Positions 8,973 through 58,816 of a stretch of DNA of 64,000 nt are shown here, piece by piece. The notes beneath the pieces were generated by a model. That model was not told the DNA's origin, made no database searches, and saw nothing but the letters and a program-made list of their open reading frames with translations. Position numbers and translations under genes: made by a program. The stretch is from an uncultured Clostridia bacterium (GTDB lineage Bacteria > Bacillota > Clostridia > TANB77 > CAG-508). The stretch spans positions 57,907 to 121,906 of the forward strand of contig CALXPW010000001.1 of assembly GCA_944390365.1 (NCBI GenBank), written 5' to 3'. Numbering within the stretch: position 1 is the first letter of the stretch; the number at the start of each line of letters is the position of its first letter.

Positions 8973-9049
8973 GCGCCCTTAGCTCAGTTGGTTAGAGCAA
9001 CCGGCTCATAACCGGTAGGTCCAAGGTTCGAATCCTTGAGGGCGCACCA
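8973..9049 (+). tRNA. tRNA with CAU anticodon (elongator tRNA-Met, or lysidine-modified tRNA-Ile2)
   Basis: Cloverleaf read by eye: acceptor stem GCGCCCT/AGGGCGC, anticodon loop CUCAUAA, T-loop GGTTCGAATCC, 3' CCA. G1-C72 is paired, so this is not an initiator. Confidence 0.85.
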
Positions 9050-9091: not shown

Positions 9092-9177
9092 GGGTAGGTG
9101 GCCGAGTGGCTAAAGGCGGCAGACTGTAAATCTGTTCTCATTTGAGTACGATGGTTCGAATCCATCCCTGCCCACCA
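9092..9177 (+). tRNA. tRNA-Tyr (GUA) with long variable arm
   Basis: Acceptor stem GGGTAGG/CCTGCCC, anticodon loop CUGUAAA, long variable arm, T-loop GGTTCGAATCC, 3' CCA. Confidence 0.85.
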
Positions 9178-15292: not shown

Positions 15293-15408
15293 CTACTTCA
15301 CCTTTACACAAAAAACTATATTTATTATATAATTTATTAAGAAATTATGCAAGTGTTTATGGTATTTTTGACTCATTGTACCAAAAAAAGCGAGATGCTC
15401 TCTCGCTT

Positions 15409-17801: not shown

Positions 17802-17924
17802 CTATTCATCCCTCCAAATTCGATTTTACAATATAGTATCATACAAACAAAAAATTGTCAAACAAATTTTTGATTTTTTTATTTTTTTCCACTTGCTTGT
17901 AGCAATTTACTGATTTAAGAATAA

Positions 17925-18073
17925 GCAAAGGATGTATATTTTAATTTTTTATTGGAGTGCTTAAGGTGGGGACCGACAAGTTTACAAACTGTTAAACGAA
18001 ACGCAAGTGAAGTTTTTACAGTTTGTACGCAGTTGGGGGCCGGAAATAAAAAATTAAAATATACATCCTTTGC
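17925..18073 (+). repeat. Palindromic repeat family 1, copy A (MITE-like, ~150 bp: diverged ~30-bp TIRs plus a conserved core)
   Basis: Left end GCAAAGGATGTATATTTTAATTTTTTATTGG, right end CCGGAAATAAAAAATTAAAATATACATCCTTTGC. Core GAGTGCTTAAGGTGGGGACCGACAAGTTTACAAACTGT-loop-ACAGTTTGTACGCAGTTGGGGGCCG. This core is shared with copies at 31141, 38123, 49543 and 57433. Confidence 0.85.
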
Positions 18074-18099
18074 CAAAATAAAGCAGTAAATTGTTACCT

Positions 18100-19398
<1,299 letters not shown>

Positions 19399-24558: not shown

Positions 24559-24864
24559 TCTTTTACACCTCCTCATGGATATATAACCTATGAACTAGTC
24601 ATAAGTAAGGATTAAAAAATAGCAACGCTATTTTTTTAACGCTACTATTCTATCATCATTTTATAAAAAAATCAAGTATAATTTGGTAAATTTACATAAT
24701 CTTTTTTCTCTGAGTTGACACATTTTCAAAAATATAGTAATATACTATCTATAACTTTAAGAATAGCTTTACAAATAATAAAAATTTATAAAGAGAGGAG
24801 TTATCATTTTTTAACCAGAATTATATAAATATAGTAATTGTTTAAATAGATTTGGTTATTGTTT

Positions 24865-25050
24865 TAGCGCCTGGACATAGGGTATTTCTTTTAGTTTTAA
24901 CTAAAAATTTATTAAATTCACTATGTTGACGAGGTAGAGGCTTATCGAAAGATTCGGCGGATGGTCTCTTGGTACTAGATTACTACCACAAATATTAGTT
25001 AAAGCCTTGCAGTGATGCAAGTATACAAAGCTAATAGAGTAGTCTTTATT
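24865..25050 (+). ncRNA. glmS ribozyme: glmS ribozyme (GlcN6P-dependent self-cleaving riboswitch)
   Basis: A cleavage-site motif A|GCGCC is at 24865. The conserved core GTTGACGAGG-tAGAGG-CTTATCGAAAGATTCGGCGGATGGTCTC matches the B. subtilis glmS ribozyme core. It lies immediately upstream of glmS. Boundaries are approximate. Confidence 0.8.
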
Positions 25051-25127: not shown

Positions 25128-26981
25128 ATGTGTGGTATTGTAGGATACGTTGGTAGCAAAAAAGCTACACCTATACTAATTGATGGTCTTTTATGTTTGG
25201 AGTACAGAGGTTATGACTCTGCCGGAATTGCAACTATAGAGAAAGATGTAATTAAGGTTATGAAAGATAAAGGTAGAGTAAATAACTTGTATAATTTGGA
25301 AGGAATAAATGATTTAGAGGGAACTGTGGGTATTGCGCATACTAGATGGGCAACACACGGCAAACCATCTAAAGAAAATTCTCACCCTCATATGGATAAT
25401 AGCAATACATTTGCAGTTGTTCATAATGGTATTATCGAAAATTATTCTGAACTAAGAGATTTTTTAAGTTCTAAAGGATATAATTTTATCTCTCAAACAG
25501 ATACAGAGGTTATTCCTAACTTAATACATTATCATTATACAAACGGACCTGAATCTGTAATTGAGGATAATCACGAAAGAGTTTTAACTGCAGTAAAATC
25601 TGCTGTACAAGATTTAAAAGGAAGCTATGCAGTTGAGGTTATTTCCCCTCTATGCCCTGATGAGGTTATTGTGGTTAGAAAGGATAGTCCACTTGTTATA
25701 GGAAAGGGTACAGATGGAAATTATATAGCATCAGATATTCCTGCTATATTAAAGTACACTAAAGATTTTTATTTATTAGATGATAATGAATTTGCAGTAG
25801 TTACTGCTGATAAGGTTAAATTTTATGATAATAGCCTAACAGAGCATAACAAAGCAATTAAAAATATTGAATGGGATGCAAATGCAGCCGGAAAAGATGG
25901 ATATGAAGATTATATGCTTAAAGAAATTTTTGAGCAACCATCTGCTATAAGAGAAACAATCGGTTCAAGATTCCGTTTAGGAGAAAAATGTTCTTTTGAT
26001 GATATGGATATTTCTAAAGAGTATTTGAGCAAAGTAAATAAAATATACATTGTTGCTTGTGGTACAGCAATGCACGCTGGATTAGCTGGCAAAAATTTAA
26101 TAGAAAAACTTTGCAAAATTCCTACAGTGGTAGATATTGCATCAGAATTTAGATACAGAGACCCACTTATTGATGAAAATACACTTTGTATATATATAAG
26201 TCAGTCTGGTGAAACAGCTGACACCATTGCAGCTTTAAAACTTGCTAAATCTAAAGGTGCCAAAACCCTTGCAATTTCTAACGTTATTGGAAGCTCTATT
26301 ACAAGAGAGGCAGACTATTCTATTTACACTCACGCAGGCCCAGAAATTGCTGTTGCATCTACAAAGGCATATACTTCACAAGTTGTTCTGCTTGCAATTC
26401 TCGCAATGCATTTTGCTGAAATATTAGGAACTTGTGATGCAGCTTGTATAGAAAGCTTGAAATCTGACTTGATAGATTTACCATCTAAAGTAGAGCAAAT
26501 ATTAGACAACATAGATATAGTTAAAGCTTTTGCAGAAAAAGTATATACAGAAAAAGATATGTTCTTTTTAGGCAGAGGCACAGATTATAATGTTGCATTA
26601 GAGGGATCTTTAAAATTAAAAGAAATATCTTACATCCATTCAGAAGCTTATGCTGCAGGTGAATTAAAGCACGGCCCAATAGCACTTATCGAAAATGGTG
26701 TAACAGTTGTAGGTATTATTACAGACGACAAATTGGTTGAAAAATCTATTAGCAACATTCAAGAAGTTGTTACAAGAGGAGCAAAAACTTTAATTATTAC
26801 AAATCAAATATTACCTAACAGTCACTTTGATTACGTAATAAATATTCCAAAAACTAATCCTCTAATTTCACCAATACTTTCTGTTGTACCAATGCAACTT
26901 TTGTCTTACTATATTGCTAAGGCTAAAGGATTAGATGTAGATAAACCACGTAATCTTGCGAAATCTGTTACAGTAGAGTAG
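25128..26981 (+). CDS. glmS: Glutamine--fructose-6-phosphate aminotransferase
   Basis: N-terminal MCGIVGY (Ntn amidotransferase), two SIS domains and the C-terminal ...AKSVTVE. 617 aa. Confidence 0.95.
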   Translation: MCGIVGYVGSKKATPILIDGLLCLEYRGYDSAGIATIEKDVIKVMKDKGRVNNLYNLEGINDLEGTVGIAHTRWATHGKPSKENSHPHMDNSNTFAVVHNGIIENYSELRDFLSSKGYNFISQTDTEVIPNLIHYHYTNGPESVIEDNHERVLTAVKSAVQDLKGSYAVEVISPLCPDEVIVVRKDSPLVIGKGTDGNYIASDIPAILKYTKDFYLLDDNEFAVVTADKVKFYDNSLTEHNKAIKNIEWDANAAGKDGYEDYMLKEIFEQPSAIRETIGSRFRLGEKCSFDDMDISKEYLSKVNKIYIVACGTAMHAGLAGKNLIEKLCKIPTVVDIASEFRYRDPLIDENTLCIYISQSGETADTIAALKLAKSKGAKTLAISNVIGSSITREADYSIYTHAGPEIAVASTKAYTSQVVLLAILAMHFAEILGTCDAACIESLKSDLIDLPSKVEQILDNIDIVKAFAEKVYTEKDMFFLGRGTDYNVALEGSLKLKEISYIHSEAYAAGELKHGPIALIENGVTVVGIITDDKLVEKSISNIQEVVTRGAKTLIITNQILPNSHFDYVINIPKTNPLISPILSVVPMQLLSYYIAKAKGLDVDKPRNLAKSVTVE

Positions 26982-28518: not shown

Positions 28519-28637
28519 AGGCTACCTCCATTATTTATAAACTAATTATTACCATTATATGCAGTTACTGTAAAATTATTCGTCCTTTATTGCTAAATTA
28601 AGTGTATTATGTGTTCTGAATTTTATATTTTTGCAAT

Positions 28638-28829
28638 AGGTTAGAGTAAACTTCTAAAAAAAGTATTTCAAATATGTCGGTCCAGCTACTTTCTCGTAGA
28701 AATTCTAAATTGATTTTATGGCACCCTTCCATCAGAGATGAACTCTTTCCATAAAATCAATCGAGAATTTCTAACTCAAAGTACTCTCCATTCCATATTT
28801 TCATACTTTTTTTATAAGTCCACTCTAAC
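28638..28829. repeat. Palindromic repeat family 2, copy 1 (192-bp long-hairpin element)
   Basis: The ends GGTTAGAGTAAACTTCTAAAAAAAGTATTTCAAATATG and CATATTTTCATACTTTTTTTATAAGTCCACTCTAACC form an inverted repeat. An inner inverted repeat GTAGAAATTCTAAATTGATTTTATGG / CCATAAAATCAATCGAGAATTTCTAAC surrounds a ~27-nt centre. The second copy is at 51764..51954, ~95% identical. Confidence 0.85.
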
Positions 28830-29054
28830 CTAAATCAAATAAAATTTTAGCTTATTTAGAACACATAATATACTAATTTAGCAATAATTTTACCCCTTGT
28901 ACCAAATTTTCTTGATTTTTCCATAAAAAAATGATACTATACTTAAGTATAAAGATTGTATAACAATAATAAATAAAATAATTAACTATAATACTTACAT
29001 TATAATTTTTAGAAAATAATTTTGAGCATTTAATTGCTCAGGTTGGAGGTTTAT

Positions 29055-30341: not shown

Positions 30342-30349
30342 CAGAGTGC

Positions 30350-30390
30350 GTGGACAAGAGGGACTACTGCCTTTTGTCCACACTTTTGCT
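30350..30390 (+). terminator. serS terminator; copy 1 of the GTGGACAA...TTGTCCAC hairpin
   Basis: GTGGACAAGAGGGACTACTGCCTTTTGTCCAC followed by ACTTTTGCTT. A near-identical hairpin occurs at 50948..50979. Confidence 0.6.
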
Positions 30391-30522
30391 TAACTTTCTT
30401 TATAATAATAAGATAATAGTTAAATTTGTGGACAATAGTAAGGAGTTAGTTTAAATTGAAAGAAATTCTTCATTACAATGTGTGCTTTTAAAGCAAAATA
30501 CGAGAAAGGAATGAAATTTAAG

Positions 30523-31104: not shown

Positions 31105-31140
31105 TTCTTAATTTGTTGTATTATGTAAGTCTTATAGCGA

Positions 31141-31279
31141 GCAAAGTAGGCTTAAAATTTTTCTTTGAGTGCTTAGGGTTGGCACCAAAAAGCATACAAA
31201 GTGTTTAACGAACGTTAGTGAGTTAATACAATTTGTGCGATGTTGGGGGCCGAAAAGAAAAATTTTAAGCCTACTTTGC
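31141..31279 (+). repeat. Palindromic repeat family 1, copy B (more diverged)
   Basis: TIRs GCAAAGTAGGCTTAAAATTTTTCTTTG / CAAAGAAAAATTTTAAGCCTACTTTGC. Degenerate core GAGTGCTTAGGGTTGGCACC...ACAATTTGTGCGATGTTGGGGGCCG. Confidence 0.75.
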
Positions 31280-31329
31280 TTGTTTAGTATATTTTTTATG
31301 TAAATTTATTGACTTTACCAGCTTTTTGT

Positions 31330-33860: not shown

Positions 33861-34598
33861 ATGAAGCAGACTTTGTATATAAACATTGATGATTCTGGAA
33901 AACTAGTAGATACCGAAAAGGTTGCTATTTATGCAGGATTAGTCTTTACATCTAAAAAAGAAAAAGATAGATTTATTACTCAATATCGCAGTATCGTACA
34001 AAATATAAAATGTAAATATTGCAACCAGAATATTGCGATTTGTAGAAGTAATAAATCCTGCCCTGAATTAAAACATAATATGTTAAAAGCTAAACATAAT
34101 AGGCAACTTATGAATTATATCAAAAAATATTCCACAATATGTTGTATAATAAATAATGATAAAGTATATCCAAATATAAAAGCAGATACTGCTTCTAGAG
34201 GTAGATTTTTAGATTATTCACTAAAGTTGTTAATAAAGCAAGTGATAAAGAATATGATTAGAGAAAAGAAAATAAATCCAGATTTACCAATTAAATTAGT
34301 AATAAATATTGATGAGCAAACAACTAAAACTAATGGATATTATAATCTACGAGATGGCATTATTGAAGAATTAAAATACGGGATTTTTAATTACAATTAT
34401 AGTTATTTTAATACACCAATAGTAAATTCTGATTTAGAAGTAGATGTTTGCTATCAAAAATCTGAAAAAAGTTACCTAATTCAAGCATCTGACTTAGTAG
34501 CAGGAACAGTTCGTAGACTTTACCTAAATAATACAAATAATCTATTAGAATTTTCAAAAAGAATAGAGTTCATAAATTATAAAATTTTTTTACCATAA
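33861..34598 (+). CDS. DUF3800-family protein
   Basis: N-terminal LYINIDDSGK and C-terminal LIQASDLVAGTVRR are the two hallmarks of DUF3800. It is a single plus-strand gene between minus-strand gltX and rnj. Confidence 0.65.
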   Translation: MKQTLYINIDDSGKLVDTEKVAIYAGLVFTSKKEKDRFITQYRSIVQNIKCKYCNQNIAICRSNKSCPELKHNMLKAKHNRQLMNYIKKYSTICCIINNDKVYPNIKADTASRGRFLDYSLKLLIKQVIKNMIREKKINPDLPIKLVINIDEQTTKTNGYYNLRDGIIEELKYGIFNYNYSYFNTPIVNSDLEVDVCYQKSEKSYLIQASDLVAGTVRRLYLNNTNNLLEFSKRIEFINYKIFLP

Positions 34599-34617
34599 AA
34601 TCTATATAGTAAATGAA

Positions 34618-34641
34618 AAGAGGCTACTTAAGTAGCCTCTT
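34618..34641. terminator. Perfect palindrome AAGAGGCTACTT/AAGTAGCCTCTT after the DUF3800 gene (possible bidirectional terminator)
   Basis: A 24-bp perfect inverted repeat. The T-tract is weak on the plus strand and modest on the minus strand. Confidence 0.4.
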
Positions 34642-34825
34642 CCCAACTAGACTGACGTACTTAACATACGCTTAATTATTTAAAATCAGTATCTAGCTAT
34701 CGACCGAACAAAGGTATATTGCCTTCTGGTATAATAATTGTAACATCTTGAGAAAAAAATGTCAACAATTATATCTTTATTTTATTCAAAAAATGAAAAA
34801 ATATTCTTCTACTACAACAAAAATT

Positions 34826-38091: not shown

Positions 38092-38122
38092 TTTTTTATC
38101 ATCCCTTTCTACAAAAAATTTA

Positions 38123-38272
38123 GCAAATAATGTATGTTTAAAATTTTTATTGGAGTTCTTAAGGTGGGGACCGACAAGTTTACAAACTGTAAAATTAAGC
38201 GTTAGCGAAAATTTATACAGTTTGTACGTAGTTGGGGGCCGACAATAAAAATTTAAAACATACATTATTTGC
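38123..38272 (+). repeat. Palindromic repeat family 1, copy C
   Basis: TIRs GCAAATAATGTATGTTTAAAATTTTTATTGG / CCGACAATAAAAATTTAAAACATACATTATTTGC. Core GAGTTCTTAAGGTGGGGACCGACAAGTTTACAAACTGT...ACAGTTTGTACGTAGTTGGGGGCCG. Confidence 0.85.
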
Positions 38273-38286
38273 TTTTTTTATAAATA

Positions 38287-49494: not shown

Positions 49495-49542
49495 AAAATC
49501 ATCAGCCTCCTATAATTTTATTATATGATGGAGGTTCTATTT

Positions 49543-49695
49543 AAGACCGGGCAAAGTATGTATTTTTTACTTTTGGTTGAAGTTCTTAAGGTGGGGACCG
49601 ACAAGCTTACAAACTGTAAAACGAAGTTTGTACAGTTTGTGCGATGTTGGGGGAACGTAAACCAAAAGTAAAAAATACATACTTTGCCCGGTCTT
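49543..49695 (+). repeat. Palindromic repeat family 1, copy D (perfect 36-bp TIRs, shortened loop)
   Basis: AAGACCGGGCAAAGTATGTATTTTTTACTTTTGGTT and its exact reverse complement flank the core GAAGTTCTTAAGGTGGGGACCGACAAGCTTACAAACTGT...ACAGTTTGTGCGATGTTGGGGGAACG. Confidence 0.85.
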
Positions 49696-49709
49696 GATTA
49701 AAATAGATA

Positions 49710-51574: not shown

Positions 51575-51763
51575 TCGTTATCTCCTCCTATGCGTGTGAC
51601 TTGTGTGTCAGATTACTCATTATCTACGTCACATTTTCAAACAATATTGTAAAACAAATATGGGAAAATGTCTAGTAGTATATTTTATATTATGTGCTTT
51701 ATTTGTTACAATATAATGATTTTATGCTATATAATTTAAATAATTCTTGTTATCTGTTTATAT

Positions 51764-51954
51764 GGGTAGAGTAAACTTCTAAAAAAAGTATTTCAAATAT
51801 GTCGGTCCAGCTACTTTTTCGTAGAAATTCTAGAATAATTTTATGGCACCCTTCCATCAGAGATGAACTCTTTCCATAAAATTATTCTAGAATCTCTAAC
51901 TCAAAGTACTTTCCATTCCATATTTTCATACTTTTTTATAAGCCCACTCTACCC
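51764..51954. repeat. Palindromic repeat family 2, copy 2
   Basis: About 95% identical to 28638..28829. The differences between copies are paired compensatory changes in both stems. Confidence 0.85.
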
Positions 51955-52074
51955 TAGTTAGAAAATGCTTATTTAAATTATAAAGCATAAAACCATTATA
52001 TTGTAATCTTCACTTTTAATAAGTTAGTTTGCTTTTATATAAAGTTGTAAATTGTAATAGCAAAGCAGAAAACT

Positions 52075-55032: not shown

Positions 55033-57363
55033 TTATTTCAACTTTTCTTCTGCTCTTTGCACTGCTTCTCTCTCATCCCAGAAGTATTGTACTCCTTTTA
55101 TTTCTTGGTATTGTTCGTGTCCTTTGCCTATTAGAAGTATAATGTCCCCCTCTTGTGCATTTTTCATCGCATATTCTATTGCTTCTTGTCTATCATCTAT
55201 TGTTATATATTTTCCACCACTTCTGTTTAATCCTGTTATAATGTCATTATTTATAGATTCCATTTCTTCAAAACGTGGGTTGTCCTCTGTAAGGATAGTA
55301 AGACCTGCATATTTTCCAGATATTTCTCCCATATCAAATCTTCTATCTCTTGCTCTGTTTCCTCCACCACCAAAGATGCATACTATTCTTTTTGGCTTGT
55401 ACTCCATAATTGTTTCCATTAAATTGGTCATTTCGTCTTCATTATGAGCATAATCTATTATTAGTTTATACTTATCATTTGAAATTGCAAGCTCCATTCT
55501 GCCTTTTACATATACTGTTTCTAATGCTTTCTTCATTGAATCTACTTTTAGTCCCAATTCATTTGCTATTGTTATAGCACATAAAGCATTATATACAGAA
55601 AATCTACCTGGAATTGCAACTTCAAATTTATCATTTACTTTTCCTGTTACATCAAATCCCATTCCTAAGAATTTGTCTGTCATAATAAATTTGATGTTTT
55701 CTGCTCTTAAGTCTACATTTTCTGAATTTATACCAAACTTTATTATATTGCAAGTATGGTTTTTAATAACATTTTCCCAGCTCTTATCATCTACATTTAT
55801 TATTCCAGTTTTGCATTTTTGGAATAACAAGCTTTTGCAGTACATATATTCTTCAAAGCTTTCGTGCTCATTTGGTCCTATATGCTCTTTAGAAATATTT
55901 GTAAATACCCCATAGTCAAATGTAAATCCATCTACTCTATGCATTTTTAGTCCTTGTGAAGACACTTCCATTATTGCATATTTGCAACCATCTTCTACCA
56001 TTTCTCTAAATAGCTTTTGGATTTCATAATTTTCTGGTGTAGTATTATGAAGAGTTATTTTTCTCTTTCCTATAAACGCACCTATTGTGCCAATTAGCCC
56101 AGCCTTTTCCCCATTTTCTTCAATCATTTTCTTTAAAATAGTTGAAGTTGAAGTTTTTCCTGCTGTTCCTGTAATTCCTACAACAGTTAGCTCTTTTGCT
56201 GGATATTTAAAATATGCTGATGAGATTTCTGCCATTGCTTCTCTTGAAGATTTTACCTTTATTATTGTAACATCTTCATCAGGAAGAACAATGTCTTTTT
56301 CTACAACTAATACCTTTGCCCCTTTTTTTATTACATCTGGTATATATTTATGTGAGTCTGATGTAGAACCAACTTTTGCTATATACATATCGTTTGGCTC
56401 TACTTTTCTAGAATCGTCTTTAATATCTGAAATATCTACATCTAGGCTTCCTTTTACAAGCTCATAATCCACATTTTGTAACAAATCTTGCAATTTTGTA
56501 GTTCTATATTTGTTTATTATATCGTCTACATCAATTTCTGACTCGAATACTGTATGTGATGGGCCTTTCATAAACATTTTTCCTGTTTCTTCGTCCCAGT
56601 TAGTTTCTAGTATTCCACCTATTTGGTGAACACTTACTTTTCTATCACATCTACCTGTTAAAACTGCTGCAACTGTAGCAGTACAACAACCTGTACCACA
56701 ACCTATAGTTTCTCCTGTTCCTCTTTCCCATTCTCTCATTTTTATATTGTTTCTATCTATTACTTGGGCAAAAGTTACATTTGTTTTGTTTGGGAACAAG
56801 TCTGTTTTATACTCAATAGCTTTTCCGTATTTTTCTACATCAAAATTATCTACATCATCTATAAACATTACACAATGAGGATTTCCCCACGATACTGCAG
56901 TAATTTTAAAAGTTCTGTCTAGTATTTTTACCTCTTGCTCTACAAATTCTTTCAAGTTTGTATTTACTGGTATTAAGTTTGTATCTAATACCGGTTTTCC
57001 AATATTTGCTTCAATATTAACTGCTTTTCCATTTTCTACAGTTAATTTAACGTGTTGAATTCCACCAAGTGTTTCTATTTTTAGTTCTGTTTTATCTGTT
57101 AACTTATGGTCATATACATATTTGCTTAGAGACCTTAGAGCATTGCCACACATTTCTCCTTCTGTTCCATCTGGGTTGAACATCCTCATTCTAAAATCTG
57201 CCACATCTGATTTGCAGATTAGCACTAGCCCATCTGAGCCTACTCCAAAGTGCCTATTGCTTATGTATTTTGCAAGTTCGTGTACATTGTTTATTTTTTG
57301 ATTTATTGCATCTATATATACATAGTCGTTTCCGTATGCTTGCATTTTTGTAAATCTTGTCAC
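55033..57363 (-). CDS. dapF-murE: Bifunctional fusion: diaminopimelate epimerase (DapF) + UDP-MurNAc-tripeptide (meso-DAP-adding) ligase MurE
   Basis: The N-terminal ~280 aa are DapF (FTKMQAYGNDY, SWGNPH, ERGTGETIGCGTGCC). The rest is a Mur ligase (VVGITGTAGKTSTS) carrying the DNPR motif (LTEDNPRF) that marks DAP-adding MurE. The frame is continuous. The start is taken at GTG 57363, which has GGAGG 8 nt upstream. Confidence 0.75.
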   Translation of the reverse strand: MTRFTKMQAYGNDYVYIDAINQKINNVHELAKYISNRHFGVGSDGLVLICKSDVADFRMRMFNPDGTEGEMCGNALRSLSKYVYDHKLTDKTELKIETLGGIQHVKLTVENGKAVNIEANIGKPVLDTNLIPVNTNLKEFVEQEVKILDRTFKITAVSWGNPHCVMFIDDVDNFDVEKYGKAIEYKTDLFPNKTNVTFAQVIDRNNIKMREWERGTGETIGCGTGCCTATVAAVLTGRCDRKVSVHQIGGILETNWDEETGKMFMKGPSHTVFESEIDVDDIINKYRTTKLQDLLQNVDYELVKGSLDVDISDIKDDSRKVEPNDMYIAKVGSTSDSHKYIPDVIKKGAKVLVVEKDIVLPDEDVTIIKVKSSREAMAEISSAYFKYPAKELTVVGITGTAGKTSTSTILKKMIEENGEKAGLIGTIGAFIGKRKITLHNTTPENYEIQKLFREMVEDGCKYAIMEVSSQGLKMHRVDGFTFDYGVFTNISKEHIGPNEHESFEEYMYCKSLLFQKCKTGIINVDDKSWENVIKNHTCNIIKFGINSENVDLRAENIKFIMTDKFLGMGFDVTGKVNDKFEVAIPGRFSVYNALCAITIANELGLKVDSMKKALETVYVKGRMELAISNDKYKLIIDYAHNEDEMTNLMETIMEYKPKRIVCIFGGGGNRARDRRFDMGEISGKYAGLTILTEDNPRFEEMESINNDIITGLNRSGGKYITIDDRQEAIEYAMKNAQEGDIILLIGKGHEQYQEIKGVQYFWDEREAVQRAEEKLK

Positions 57364-57432
57364 TGTTAATTCCTCCTCTTTTCGCAAAAGGGGACGGGTT
57401 TATTTTGTAAAAAGACTATTTTATCTTTTTAT

Positions 57433-57578
57433 AAAATTATATGTATTTTATTTTTTGTCGGAGTGCTTAAGGTGGGGACCGACAAGTTTACAAACTGTTG
57501 AACTGAATGTTAGTGAAGTTTATACAGTTTGTACGATGTTGGGGGCCGGAGACCAAAAAGAAAATACATATAATTTTG
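57433..57578 (+). repeat. Palindromic repeat family 1, copy E, nested inside an outer perfect 28-bp inverted repeat (57384..57411 / 57601..57627)
   Basis: Core GAGTGCTTAAGGTGGGGACCGACAAGTTTACAAACTGT...ACAGTTTGTACGATGTTGGGGGCCG. Outer arms GCAAAAGGGGACGGGTTTATTTTGTAAA / TTACAAAATAAACCCGTCCCCTTTTGC. Confidence 0.85.
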
Positions 57579-57637
57579 AAATATAAAACAAATCTGATAT
57601 TTACAAAATAAACCCGTCCCCTTTTGCAAATTTTCTA

Positions 57638-58816
57638 TTATTCCATAGCTTGTTTTAAATCTGCAATGATATCATCTGCATCTTCTATACCTACAGATAA
57701 TCTAAGTAATGTATCTGTAATTCCTAAAGCATTTCTTTTATCTTCTGAGATTTCAGTATGTGTTCTACTTACAGGGTGTGTAATTAAACTTTCTACTCCA
57801 CCTAAGCTTTCTGCAAATGTTACCAATTTTAAGTTTGCTAAAATTTTATTTACAGTTTCCATACTGTCTACTCTAAATGATATCATACCACCAAAGCCTG
57901 TGGTTTGTTTTTTAGTTACTGCATAGTCTTTATGGTCTTCAAATCCTACGTAATATACTTGTTCTACCATTGGTTCTTTACGAAGCCAGTTTGCTACTTT
58001 CATTGCATTTTCTGCGTGCTTGTCCATTCTTAATGCAAGTGTTTTTAGTCCTCTTAACATTAACCAAGAGTCCATTGGTCCTAAGCCAGCGCCATAAATA
58101 TACATTTGAATTTCTAGCTTTTCTCCAATTTGACTATCTTTTACAACAACTATTCCTCCTAATACATCATTATGACCAGCTAGGTATTTTGTTCCACTAT
58201 GAACTACAATATCTGCACCTAATGTAAGTGGTCTTTGGAAGTATGGTGTTAAGAATGTATTATCTACAACAACTAGAGCACCTATTTCGTGACCTATTTT
58301 AGATATTTTTTCAATGTCTGCAACTTTCATCATAGGGTTTGTTGGAGTTTCTATAAATATCATTTTTGTGTTTTTCTTTATTGTCTTTTTTAGTAAGTCT
58401 AAATCTGACAAATCTATGCTATCATATTCTACTCCATTTACAGTTAATACTTCGTTTACCTCTCTAAAAGTTCCACCATATATATCGTCTGACATAATTA
58501 TGTGGTCTCCTGGTTTAAGTAGTGAAAATACTAGTGTAGTTGCTGCCATACCAGAATTTACAGCAAATGCTCTTGTGCCTTCCTCTAAAATTGTCATTGT
58601 TTTTTCTAGTTCTTCTCTTGTTGGATTGATACATCTAGCATAATTGTATAGATCTTTCTTTTCTATTCCACTATGCTTAAATGTAGCAGTTTGATAAATT
58701 GGGAAGCTTATTGACCCAGTTACTGGATCTACTCCTAATGCACCATGTACTACTTTTGATGCTAATTTTAAATTTTCCTTTCTGTCAAAATTTTGATAAT
58801 CTTTTGAATCTTTCAT
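57638..58816 (-). CDS. PLP-dependent cystathionine gamma-synthase / beta-lyase / methionine gamma-lyase family enzyme
   Basis: Cys/Met-metabolism PLP fold with the lysine motif region (HSGTKYLAGHNDV). 392 aa. Confidence 0.85.
   Translation of the reverse strand: MKDSKDYQNFDRKENLKLASKVVHGALGVDPVTGSISFPIYQTATFKHSGIEKKDLYNYARCINPTREELEKTMTILEEGTRAFAVNSGMAATTLVFSLLKPGDHIIMSDDIYGGTFREVNEVLTVNGVEYDSIDLSDLDLLKKTIKKNTKMIFIETPTNPMMKVADIEKISKIGHEIGALVVVDNTFLTPYFQRPLTLGADIVVHSGTKYLAGHNDVLGGIVVVKDSQIGEKLEIQMYIYGAGLGPMDSWLMLRGLKTLALRMDKHAENAMKVANWLRKEPMVEQVYYVGFEDHKDYAVTKKQTTGFGGMISFRVDSMETVNKILANLKLVTFAESLGGVESLITHPVSRTHTEISEDKRNALGITDTLLRLSVGIEDADDIIADLKQAME

Follow-up and report, generated by a model that had tools for sequence, protein, structure and literature searches.

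The 64,000-nt stretch of DNA analyzed here (the window: positions 57,907 to 121,906 of contig CALXPW010000001.1, from an uncultured Clostridia bacterium) carries five intergenic copies, A to E, of a long palindromic repeat. All five lie where a preliminary description, made from the letters alone, had placed them, and they align over ~150 nt with a mean column identity of 74%. Each copy forms a long hairpin on either strand (folding z-scores −6.3 to −13.6), in which arms of ~30 bp enclose an asymmetric, highly conserved segment of ~90 nt, the core; this segment forms a hairpin of its own, which carries a G-rich bulge. Within the window the core points one way only: the motif GGTGGGGACCGACAAG has four exact matches, all on the + strand, against 0.07 expected by chance, and the 3' core motif ACAGTTTGTACGNNGTTGGGGGCCG has four matches, again all on the + strand, against 0 expected; neither motif is found elsewhere in the window. 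The neighboring genes run on the + strand at copy B alone and on the − strand at the other four copies. One part of the preliminary description has to be corrected. The ~30-bp arms had been taken for transposon ends, which is wrong: they are an internal stem, and the true terminal inverted repeats (TIRs), beginning GTTAC, lie ~25 bp farther out. The extents first given were too short; they are 17899-18097 for A, 49535-49703 for D and 57381-57630 for E.

Copy A (17899..18097, + strand) is a full element of 199 bp, located 2 nt past the obg stop codon and upstream of a promoter-like site of lexA (17861-17833, − strand). It is the only window copy with a clear GTTAC TIR. Its outer TIRs are GTAGCAATTTACTG (17899-17912) and CAGTAAATTGTTAC (18084-18097); in the ortholog at locus L034 they are complementary at 14/14 positions and the flanking duplication has decayed. 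The internal stem of copy A consists of 29-nt arms (17925-17953 / 18045-18073) around a core (17954-18044, + strand) that serves as our type example. The open reading frame (ORF) at 17915..18112 does exist and is, as suspected, an artifact of the copy; the only ORF calls across copy A, of 65 and 45 aa, are spurious. Copy B (31140..31280, + strand) has 27-nt arms (31140-31166 / 31254-31280) and a core, GGTTGGCACCAAAAAG, whose decay is evident both in the alignment of the copies and in the profile search described below. It is the sole window copy with the G-rich strand sense to both neighbors, an EngB-like GTPase gene and a gene for an 81-aa protein, which has a promoter-like TTGACT..TATAAT sequence of its own. 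Copy C (38122..38273, + strand; 31-nt arms 38122-38152 / 38243-38273, 97% complementary) occupies the gap between the stop of a T2SSF gene and the true start of a ROK gene, and no outer TIR was recognisable in it. The first ~60 codons of the ROK ORF are an artifact of this copy, because the Pfam domain begins at residue 61 of the 352-aa ORF and other gene calls give 294 aa. Copy D (49535..49703, + strand; 51-nt arms 49535-49585 / 49653-49703, 90% complementary) lies between a TPR gene and dpaA. It is a variant with a short apical loop and the P2 helix GTTC/GAAC and, going by linker sequence that on inspection it shares with copy A, is probably an old copy of the same type. In copy E (57381..57630, + strand) stem and core (57433-57578) are nested in a second palindromic shell ending in GCAAAAGGGGACGGGT (57384-57399) and its complement (57612-57627). 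Copy E lies between a gene for a Cys/Met pyridoxal-phosphate (PLP) enzyme and dapF-murE. The latter is one 784-aa ORF (55033-57387, − strand) with diaminopimelate (DAP) epimerase (DapF) and Mur ligase (MurE-like) domains, a fusion that also appears in independent gene calls (776 aa).

The repeat is widespread. An exact scan of species-representative genomes for the core pattern gave at least 108 loci (numbered with an L), of which 103 are low-GC (29%) metagenome-assembled genomes (MAGs); among the matches listed, these are labelled uncultured Clostridium or Clostridia and equal the window in GC content. Five high-GC loci (L031, L079, L099, L102, L103) were discarded as chance pattern matches. 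A profile built from 83 non-redundant copies returned 127 matches in the 840 kb of loci, and 12 of them differ from the exact pattern by only 1-3 bases, so that the conservation of the core is not merely a product of how the loci were fetched. Altogether more than 120 further copies were found on ~100 contigs of uncultured gut Clostridia. Insertion sites vary between relatives, some of those occupied in L064/L048/L056 or L067 being without a copy in the window. The window spacer between the seryl-tRNA synthetase gene and engB (30342-30477) holds an ordinary terminator-like hairpin, GTGGACAA...TTGTCCAC; the same spacer in three related species (L048, L056, L064) holds an element copy with the C-rich strand sense to the genes.

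No known family was recovered. Rfam (Rfam 15) has no family on the five copies when the window is scanned at gathering threshold, and copy A at E≤10 gave only spurious long-hairpin miRNA models. BLASTN against plasmid and phage collections gave no match, a core scan of viral contigs gave 0 matches, and a full-text literature search for six sequence strings of the element returned no papers. The statement that the repeat belongs to no described family thus stands as far as Rfam, the phage and plasmid collections and the full-text search reach; judged by these comparisons, the element family is previously undescribed. The Rfam matches at gathering threshold in the window lie elsewhere: a glmS ribozyme (24855-25046, + strand) upstream of ORF 25128-26981, a DUF3800-I RNA (34607-34737, − strand) adjoining ORF 33861-34598, and two tRNAs (8973-9046 and 9092-9174, + strand).

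The 83-sequence alignment yields a consensus fold of five helices. With copy A as example, the core comprises helix P2 (GYGC/GCC), the G-rich bulge UUAAGGUGGGGA, helix P3 (CCGAC/GUUGG) with a fixed G.U pair, helix P4 (ACAAACUGU/ACAGUUUGU) and a variable apical region, which takes the form of a short loop of the C-GNA-G type in some copies and of a longer arm in others. The covariation test that had been suggested for the copies gave a strong signal: 91.7% of the cells are paired versus 78.2% in shuffles, 412 cells versus 135 are changed on both sides, and the covariation score is 0.352 versus 0.116 in shuffled and at most 0.135 in slid alignments, with 0/500 shuffles reaching the observed values. 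P2 occurs as GUGC/GCC, GUUC/GAAC, GGAC/GUCC and CGUC/GACG, and P4 shows double compensations from ACAAACUGU/ACAGUUUGU to AGAAAGUGU/ACACUUUCU, AAAAACUGU/ACAGUUUUU or ACAGUCUGU/ACAGACUGU. The observation that the arms diverge between copies while remaining paired within a copy is borne out, since the arms differ between sub-families and complementarity is kept. The evidence on which strand folds is mixed. In the outer stem, departures on a single side are symmetric (66 G.T versus 60 A.C), the pattern of a DNA palindrome and not of selection on one RNA strand. In the core the fixed G.U pair of P3 and the departures in P4, 13 G.U versus 2 A.C (p=0.007), favor the G-rich strand; this strand is computed to fold ~10-12 kcal/mol more stably than its complement.

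In many copies the palindrome runs outward past the 30-bp arms to a conserved 14-mer, GTTACAATTCACAG...CTGTGAATTGTAAC. The true ends are inverted repeats of 14-16 bp that start with GTTAC and come in two variants, GTTACAATTCACAG and GTTACTAGATAATGGT. To look for a target-site duplication, the flanks of 32 non-redundant GTTACAATTCACAG/CTGTGAATTGTAAC-bounded elements, mostly of 186-211 bp, were compared as direct repeats of 3-12 bp. In the 8-bp register the mean flank identity is 0.70, with 7 perfect duplications; at every other length it is 0.28-0.42, and with shuffled partners 0.37. Perfect 8-bp duplications also flank elements with the second TIR variant (L027 CACAAAAT, L057 ATGTGAAT, L039 ATTTAAGT, L034 TTTCGTTC, L063 CAAATCTC). 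Element size ranges from 186 to 275 bp. Shorter elements of 49-100 bp retain TIR and duplication and lack one arm and the core; we considered them as empty ancestors and rejected this, because the retained arm marks them as deletion derivatives.

Terminal inverted repeats, a duplication of fixed length, the lack of an ORF and the large number of copies are together the features of MITEs (miniature inverted-repeat transposable elements). The exact 8-bp duplication further indicates that the copies were pasted in by a DDE-type transposase supplied in trans. The MITE, one of several alternatives in the preliminary description, is therefore supported by its TIRs, the exact duplication, the absence of coding capacity, more than 120 sites, differences in site occupancy between species and a loss at the strain level. 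We put the probability at roughly 85% that the repeats are copies of a new non-autonomous MITE family, ~190-250 bp long, of gut Clostridia with ~29% GC. In kind such a family is ordinary selfish DNA. Two other assignments were considered and dropped. A role as intrinsic terminator does not fit, as U-rich sequence lies in the 5' arm and A-rich sequence in the 3' arm whichever way the element is read, and a terminator scan found none. Integron attC sites carry conserved R''/R' boxes (GTTRRRY) at the 3' end of the cassette and occur in arrays beside intI; here the termini GTTACAA/GTTACTA do not fit GTTRRRY, and the copies lie 7-13 kb apart among housekeeping genes.

The family is modular in both directions. 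GTTAC termini also enclose unrelated cargos, at L034 2423-2690, L063 809-1068 and window 51705-52007. The window example is a nested-palindrome repeat with the ends GTTACAATATAATGATTTT... / ...AAAACCATTATATTGTAAT and the flanks CTTTATTT / CTTCACTT (6/8 identical), and these ends and flanks identify it as a MITE of the GTTAC superfamily with a different cargo of ~210 bp. The same cargo recurs in a different shell at window 28620-28832 (within 28596-28879) and matches L068 3657-3870 at 91%. The example in L034, 268 bp long, is a MITE bounded by GTTACTAGATAATGGT; its duplication, TTTCGTTC, is perfect, and its structured cargo (GCAGTGACGCGTAAGCGACCAAACGAGC...) is of a third kind. The window, where the orthologous position is ~15372-15400, lacks this MITE. 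It has relatives at L054 7721-7988, L063 809-1068 and L011 617-1066, and gave no Rfam match when L034 2380-2730 was searched. Stem and core, in turn, also sit inside a different shell, (T)GCAAAAGGGGACGGGC..., as in copy E, and in total the core is retained in three different shells. The arms of the GCAAAAGGGGACGGGC shell extend outward as a variable palindrome, and the shell is also found alone as hairpins of 50-150 bp. The motif AAAGGGGACGGGC, set in a GCAAAA...TTTTGC mini-hairpin, is a dispersed repeat itself, with 58 matches in 33 sources (32 loci and the window); in the window it stands at 57384-57399 and 57612-57627, elsewhere it forms 50-150-bp hairpin doublets without the core, and it resembles the core half-motifs GGGGACCGAC / GGGGGCCGA. 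Stem and core as a separate DDE transposon nested in shells were also considered; on inspection neither junction direct repeats nor conserved stem termini were present, and the idea was rejected.

The GCAAAAGGGGACGGGC shell looks REPIN-like, with terminal mini-hairpins, arms that form a variable palindrome and no target duplication, and copies in this shell may move by another route than the GTTAC-type copies. Extended to the whole family, this resemblance would mean mobilization as single-stranded DNA by an HUH (Y1) enzyme, as for REP/REPIN-RAYT or the IS200/IS605-derived PATEs, which would bring an intrinsic strand bias. The conserved fold with its fixed mismatch and the strand-biased orientation of the copies fit such a route. 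The exact 8-bp target duplication of the GTTAC-type copies is, however, not made by HUH transposition, and the orientation bias is far from absolute. PATE or REP/RAYT elements insert beside a fixed tetra- or pentanucleotide and make no duplication, from which the GTTAC-type copies with their 8-bp duplication depart; only copies in the second shell lack a duplication. No Y1 transposase gene turned up, though no search aimed at one was made. Overall we consider HUH mobilization of the main family quite improbable.

The core evolves slowly in place. Measured in nine orthologous locus pairs, divergence is 7.7% in the flanks (mostly coding), 7.6% in the outer shell, 6.3% in the long stem, 5.3% in the apical loop and 2.8% in the core, with 18/645 differences in the core versus 399/5179 in the flanks (p=6e-7). 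With the two least certain pairs removed, the values are 1.4% for the core versus 5.5% for the flanks (p=4e-5). The slow evolution could reflect constraint on a folded nucleic acid, that is purifying selection, or gene conversion, for which each genome offers more than 100 identical cores.

Core and stem might on these grounds be a functional structured RNA, either a small RNA (sRNA) or a cis-acting mRNA element, that is carried by MITE shells. The long stem would then act as an RNase III or stability determinant, and the active surface would be the bulge, either UUAAGGUGGGGA itself or, in mRNA sense, the C-rich complement UCCCCACCUUAA; it might, for example, mimic a Shine-Dalgarno (SD) or anti-SD sequence. 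Strong covariation in P1, P2 and P4, the divergence of 2.8% in the core against 7.7% in the flanks, the fixed G.U pair in P3, the 13 G.U versus 2 A.C departures in P4, a core common to three shells and an orientation that is biased relative to transcription are all compatible with this proposal. Nevertheless, the G-rich strand, which carries the wobble signal, is antisense to its neighbors in ~80% of the copies, no promoter was found inside copies A and E, and the equality of G.T and A.C departures in the outer stem is what pairing at the DNA level predicts. Rfam gave no match, and more than 100 copies per genome stand beside unrelated housekeeping genes. We therefore hold a functional RNA to be unlikely, though it deserves to be kept in mind.

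Several results weigh against the MITE reading and have to be set beside its support. About half of the copies, B, C and D included, have no recognisable GTTAC terminus, and the GCAAAAGGGGACGGGC-shell copies, E included, show no target duplication at any offset or length. No cognate transposase or autonomous insertion sequence (IS) with matching termini was found in the 840 kb of loci, which were searched for orphan TIRs, for multi-copy ORFs and for pairs of GTTAC at a distance of 0.6-3.5 kb. When metagenomes were scanned for a parent element, in which the 5' half of the core would precede an ATG, only one further MITE copy, L109, was recovered. The missing parent is weak evidence, because MAG assemblies usually drop IS copies. 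No clean pair of insertion and empty site was recovered either: the sole empty allele is a deletion that also took 22 nt of flank, and at window 30342-30477, ~47625 and 15372-15400 the intergenic DNA is insufficiently homologous for an empty-site comparison. Finally, slower evolution of the core than of the coding DNA beside it is not predicted by a neutral MITE, and the same is true of the fixed G.U pair in P3 and of the 13 G.U versus 2 A.C departures in P4. Three features, namely the slow asymmetric core common to several shells, the co-evolving arms and the 4:1 polarity bias described below, are left unexplained by a neutral MITE. The possibility that the core is the remnant of the 5' end of a transposase gene, with AAGGTGGGG as ribosome-binding site, was dropped, since the metagenome scan gave only the MITE at L109.

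Comparison of related lineages revealed inversion of the core in place. The loci L028 and L054 are orthologous across uvrC, a 66-aa ORF, an element, a Fic gene, a methyltransferase gene, a second element and groES. The two loci agree at the first element in their flanks, in both TIRs, in both asymmetric linkers and in the 31-bp arms; the one difference is the segment GGAGTGC...GCCGGA, which is reverse-complemented and has one substitution. The second element lies 2.1 kb away and is likewise flipped. In 24 further assemblies of the first site, with arms at the same coordinates, the core is in + orientation in 13 and in − orientation in 11, and in assemblies taken with 6-kb flanks all four orientation combinations of the two elements occur. 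SNPs (single-nucleotide polymorphisms) in the flanks define three haplogroups, one + and two −. Since orientation follows these haplogroups, one or few heritable inversions suffice to explain the pattern, and rapid phase variation is ruled out by the haplotype structure. Window sites A, C, D and E have the window orientation in all 16 assemblies examined. Contigs with the window sites and those with the + haplogroup of the Fic locus probably belong to the same organism as the window, given shared samples and matching coverage. The flips probably arose by recombination or template switching between the inverted arms; neither an invertase site in the arms nor a promoter in the cores of copies A and E was evident. 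Among the Fic-locus copies (L133-L157) the G.U-pairing base of P3 (CCNAC) varies between G, T and A. No variant is confined to a single flank haplogroup or to one orientation, which points to a mutational hotspot at the mismatched position. The P0021 lineage has a third copy, between an M50 peptidase gene and uvrC (~2.9 kb upstream of Fic, L158-L176), that was not detected in the P0030 lineage. Between groES and groEL the spacer is 86 nt long in some assemblies; others have ~200 nt there, and the element does not account for the additional DNA.

A programmed inverton, regulating the adjacent genes through a site-specific invertase that turns the core around within its arms, would account for several of these observations: perfect inverted repeats of 27-34 bp enclose the core, both orientations exist at the same site (13 and 11 of 24 assemblies), and the two copies bracketing the Fic-methyltransferase pair occur in all four combinations. 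It does not account for an orientation that tracks the three flank-SNP haplogroups, or for window sites A, C, D and E, where 16 assemblies show no flip. Moreover, the arm sequences vary from copy to copy, which leaves no common recombinase site, and no promoter-like site lies in the cores of A and E. We judge an inverton highly improbable.

A copy can also be lost. In one strain group, made up of L111 and seven similar places, the Obg protein is identical and copy A is missing. Exactly 221 nt are gone, corresponding to the element plus 22 nt of flank, and the junction can be explained by a deletion between two TAAA microhomologies. As copy A is present in two other species-level relatives (L009, L034), the state in L111 is a secondary loss, and copy A is dispensable between obg and lexA. 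The dispensability of copy A in natural strains and the persistence of both orientations at the Fic locus also count against core and stem as a functional RNA. Flips and deletion allele can be used as strain-level markers.

The orientation of the core is biased relative to the surrounding genes. Among the matches listed, to which the counts in this paragraph refer, and with the nearest long ORFs taken as neighbors, the G-rich strand is antisense to both neighbors in 59 cases and sense to both in 15, while 16 pairs of neighbors are divergent and 10 convergent; with orthologs collapsed, 49 antisense stand against 13 sense (p=5e-6). In the antisense class, all 55 loci have negative GC skew on the strand of the G-rich core. 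In the sense class the entire 8-kb locus is co-oriented with the core and the skew is positive in 14/15, which makes these loci true exceptions and not local gene inversions. The window, with a + strand GC skew of −0.16, follows the rule: four copies are antisense to − strand genes, and the lone sense copy, B, is the decayed one. No wider enrichment of diverged cores among sense-oriented copies was seen in a comparison of 12 copies. The suggestion that orientation tracks the replichore is thus correct in part: a preference of ~4:1 for antisense to the flanking genes and for one sign of local GC skew is real, but ~20% of the copies are opposite and the core is flipped at two loci, so that the core is not a strict replichore marker.

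These counts also bear on the proposal that the core is a polar protein-binding chromosomal motif of the KOPS, SRS or Chi-like type that tracks the direction of replication. Its two G-rich direct half-motifs, the co-orientation of all five window copies on a strand with skew −0.16 and the negative skew at 55/55 antisense-class loci suit such a motif. The 15 opposite loci, each co-oriented as a whole and with positive skew in 14, do not. Furthermore, the prevailing orientation places the G-rich motif on the lagging strand, which is opposite to KOPS- or Chi-type skew. The core flips without visible consequence, one copy is deleted in some strains, and ~1 copy per 13 kb, inside a transposon, is too sparse. 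We give this proposal hardly any weight. In summary, strict replichore markers, programmed invertons and HUH mobilization of the main family are each unlikely.

Under the MITE reading, the polarity bias calls for an explanation of its own. As the two termini are identical, a transposase could not sense the polarity of the core, which suggests that the bias arises after insertion. It may arise by selection against the G-rich, SD-like strand (AAGGUGGGGA bulge) in mRNA and/or on the lagging-strand template. A second route would be an orientation-dependent, hairpin-driven flipping of the core between its arms that occurs more often out of the disfavored orientation. In our preferred account the G-rich strand would be the disfavored one, because it folds more stably; it also carries the SD-like AAGGUGGGGA bulge. 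The prevailing antisense orientation would put the G-rich strand on the leading-strand template. The family thereby offers a natural system in which selection on transcripts and replication-linked hairpin dynamics can be weighed against each other as sources of the strand bias of repeats.

More speculatively, the core might be a functional, polarity-sensitive module, either RNA or folded single-stranded DNA, whose bulge and fixed G.U pair are recognized by a host or element-encoded factor. Such a module would have been spread by at least three kinds of MITE shell to more than 100 intergenic sites per genome, with its orientation tuned after insertion by inversion and selection. We regard this as doubtful. 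Two points worth following up are the inversion of the core in place and the fact that several shells share one core. The family also has practical consequences. At a density of ~1 copy per 13 kb it makes up roughly 1-2% of these small genomes, and it breaks short-read assemblies, many copies being located at the ends of contigs. False ORFs such as 17915..18112 and false N-terminal extensions such as that of the ROK gene are also due to it, and masking it would improve the annotation of poorly known gut Clostridia.

Among known mobile elements, the long clostridial ‘IS6-like’ clades VII/VIII generate 8-bp target duplications (PMC6807381). They share this duplication length and hosts among the Clostridia with the family described here, but their described TIRs, with G at position 7 and outermost bases that are rarely complementary (PMC6807381), do not obviously fit GTTACAATTCACAG. 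As a source of the mobilizing transposase they are only a lead. The inversions resemble the small hairpin-loop inversions of chloroplast non-coding DNA and bacterial invertons in that a short segment between inverted repeats is found in both orientations at one site. In contrast to these, the segment belongs here to a dispersed transposon family, as its core; its flips are few and bound to lineages, with no evident promoter or invertase. The GCAAAAGGGGACGGGC shell of copy E is similar to REP/REPIN (RAYT) systems in that it lacks a duplication, has GC-rich mini-hairpins at its ends within an AT-rich genome and forms a long hairpin from an inverted doublet. The main family differs from these by its 8-bp duplications of DDE type; a conserved head of the GTAG type is absent and no RAYT was identified.

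Parallels also exist among structured MITEs. ERIC/IRU and bcr1 of Bacillus cereus are, like the elements studied here, imperfect palindromes of ~125-155 bp whose structure is kept by compensatory changes. bcr1 is a structured imperfect palindrome that duplicates TTTAT. To our knowledge, neither inversion of the center in place nor the sharing of a core among different TIR shells has been described for ERIC or bcr1, and hosts, sequences and target duplications differ as well. ERIC elements have orientation-dependent effects on host mRNAs and occur in variants with extra internal segments (PMC10969869). With the Correia (nemis) elements of Neisseria the family shares more than 100 copies per genome, an intergenic and non-coding location, a nearly full palindrome and a functional-looking center. 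Correia elements are 100-160 bp long, have conserved TIRs of 26 bp, duplicate TA and belong to Proteobacteria. Here, in contrast, the duplication is 8 bp, the termini begin with GTTAC, the arms vary with compensation and an asymmetric core is common to different shells; within the scope of the Rfam and BLAST comparison no sequence similarity is evident. Hairpins of Correia elements in mRNA are substrates of RNase III (PMC10969869). In conclusion, the family from gut Clostridia joins Correia, ERIC, bcr1 and RUP-type structured MITEs in kind, and it provides a clear bacterial case in which co-evolving MITE arms and a fixed core are combined with a biased polarity despite symmetric termini.

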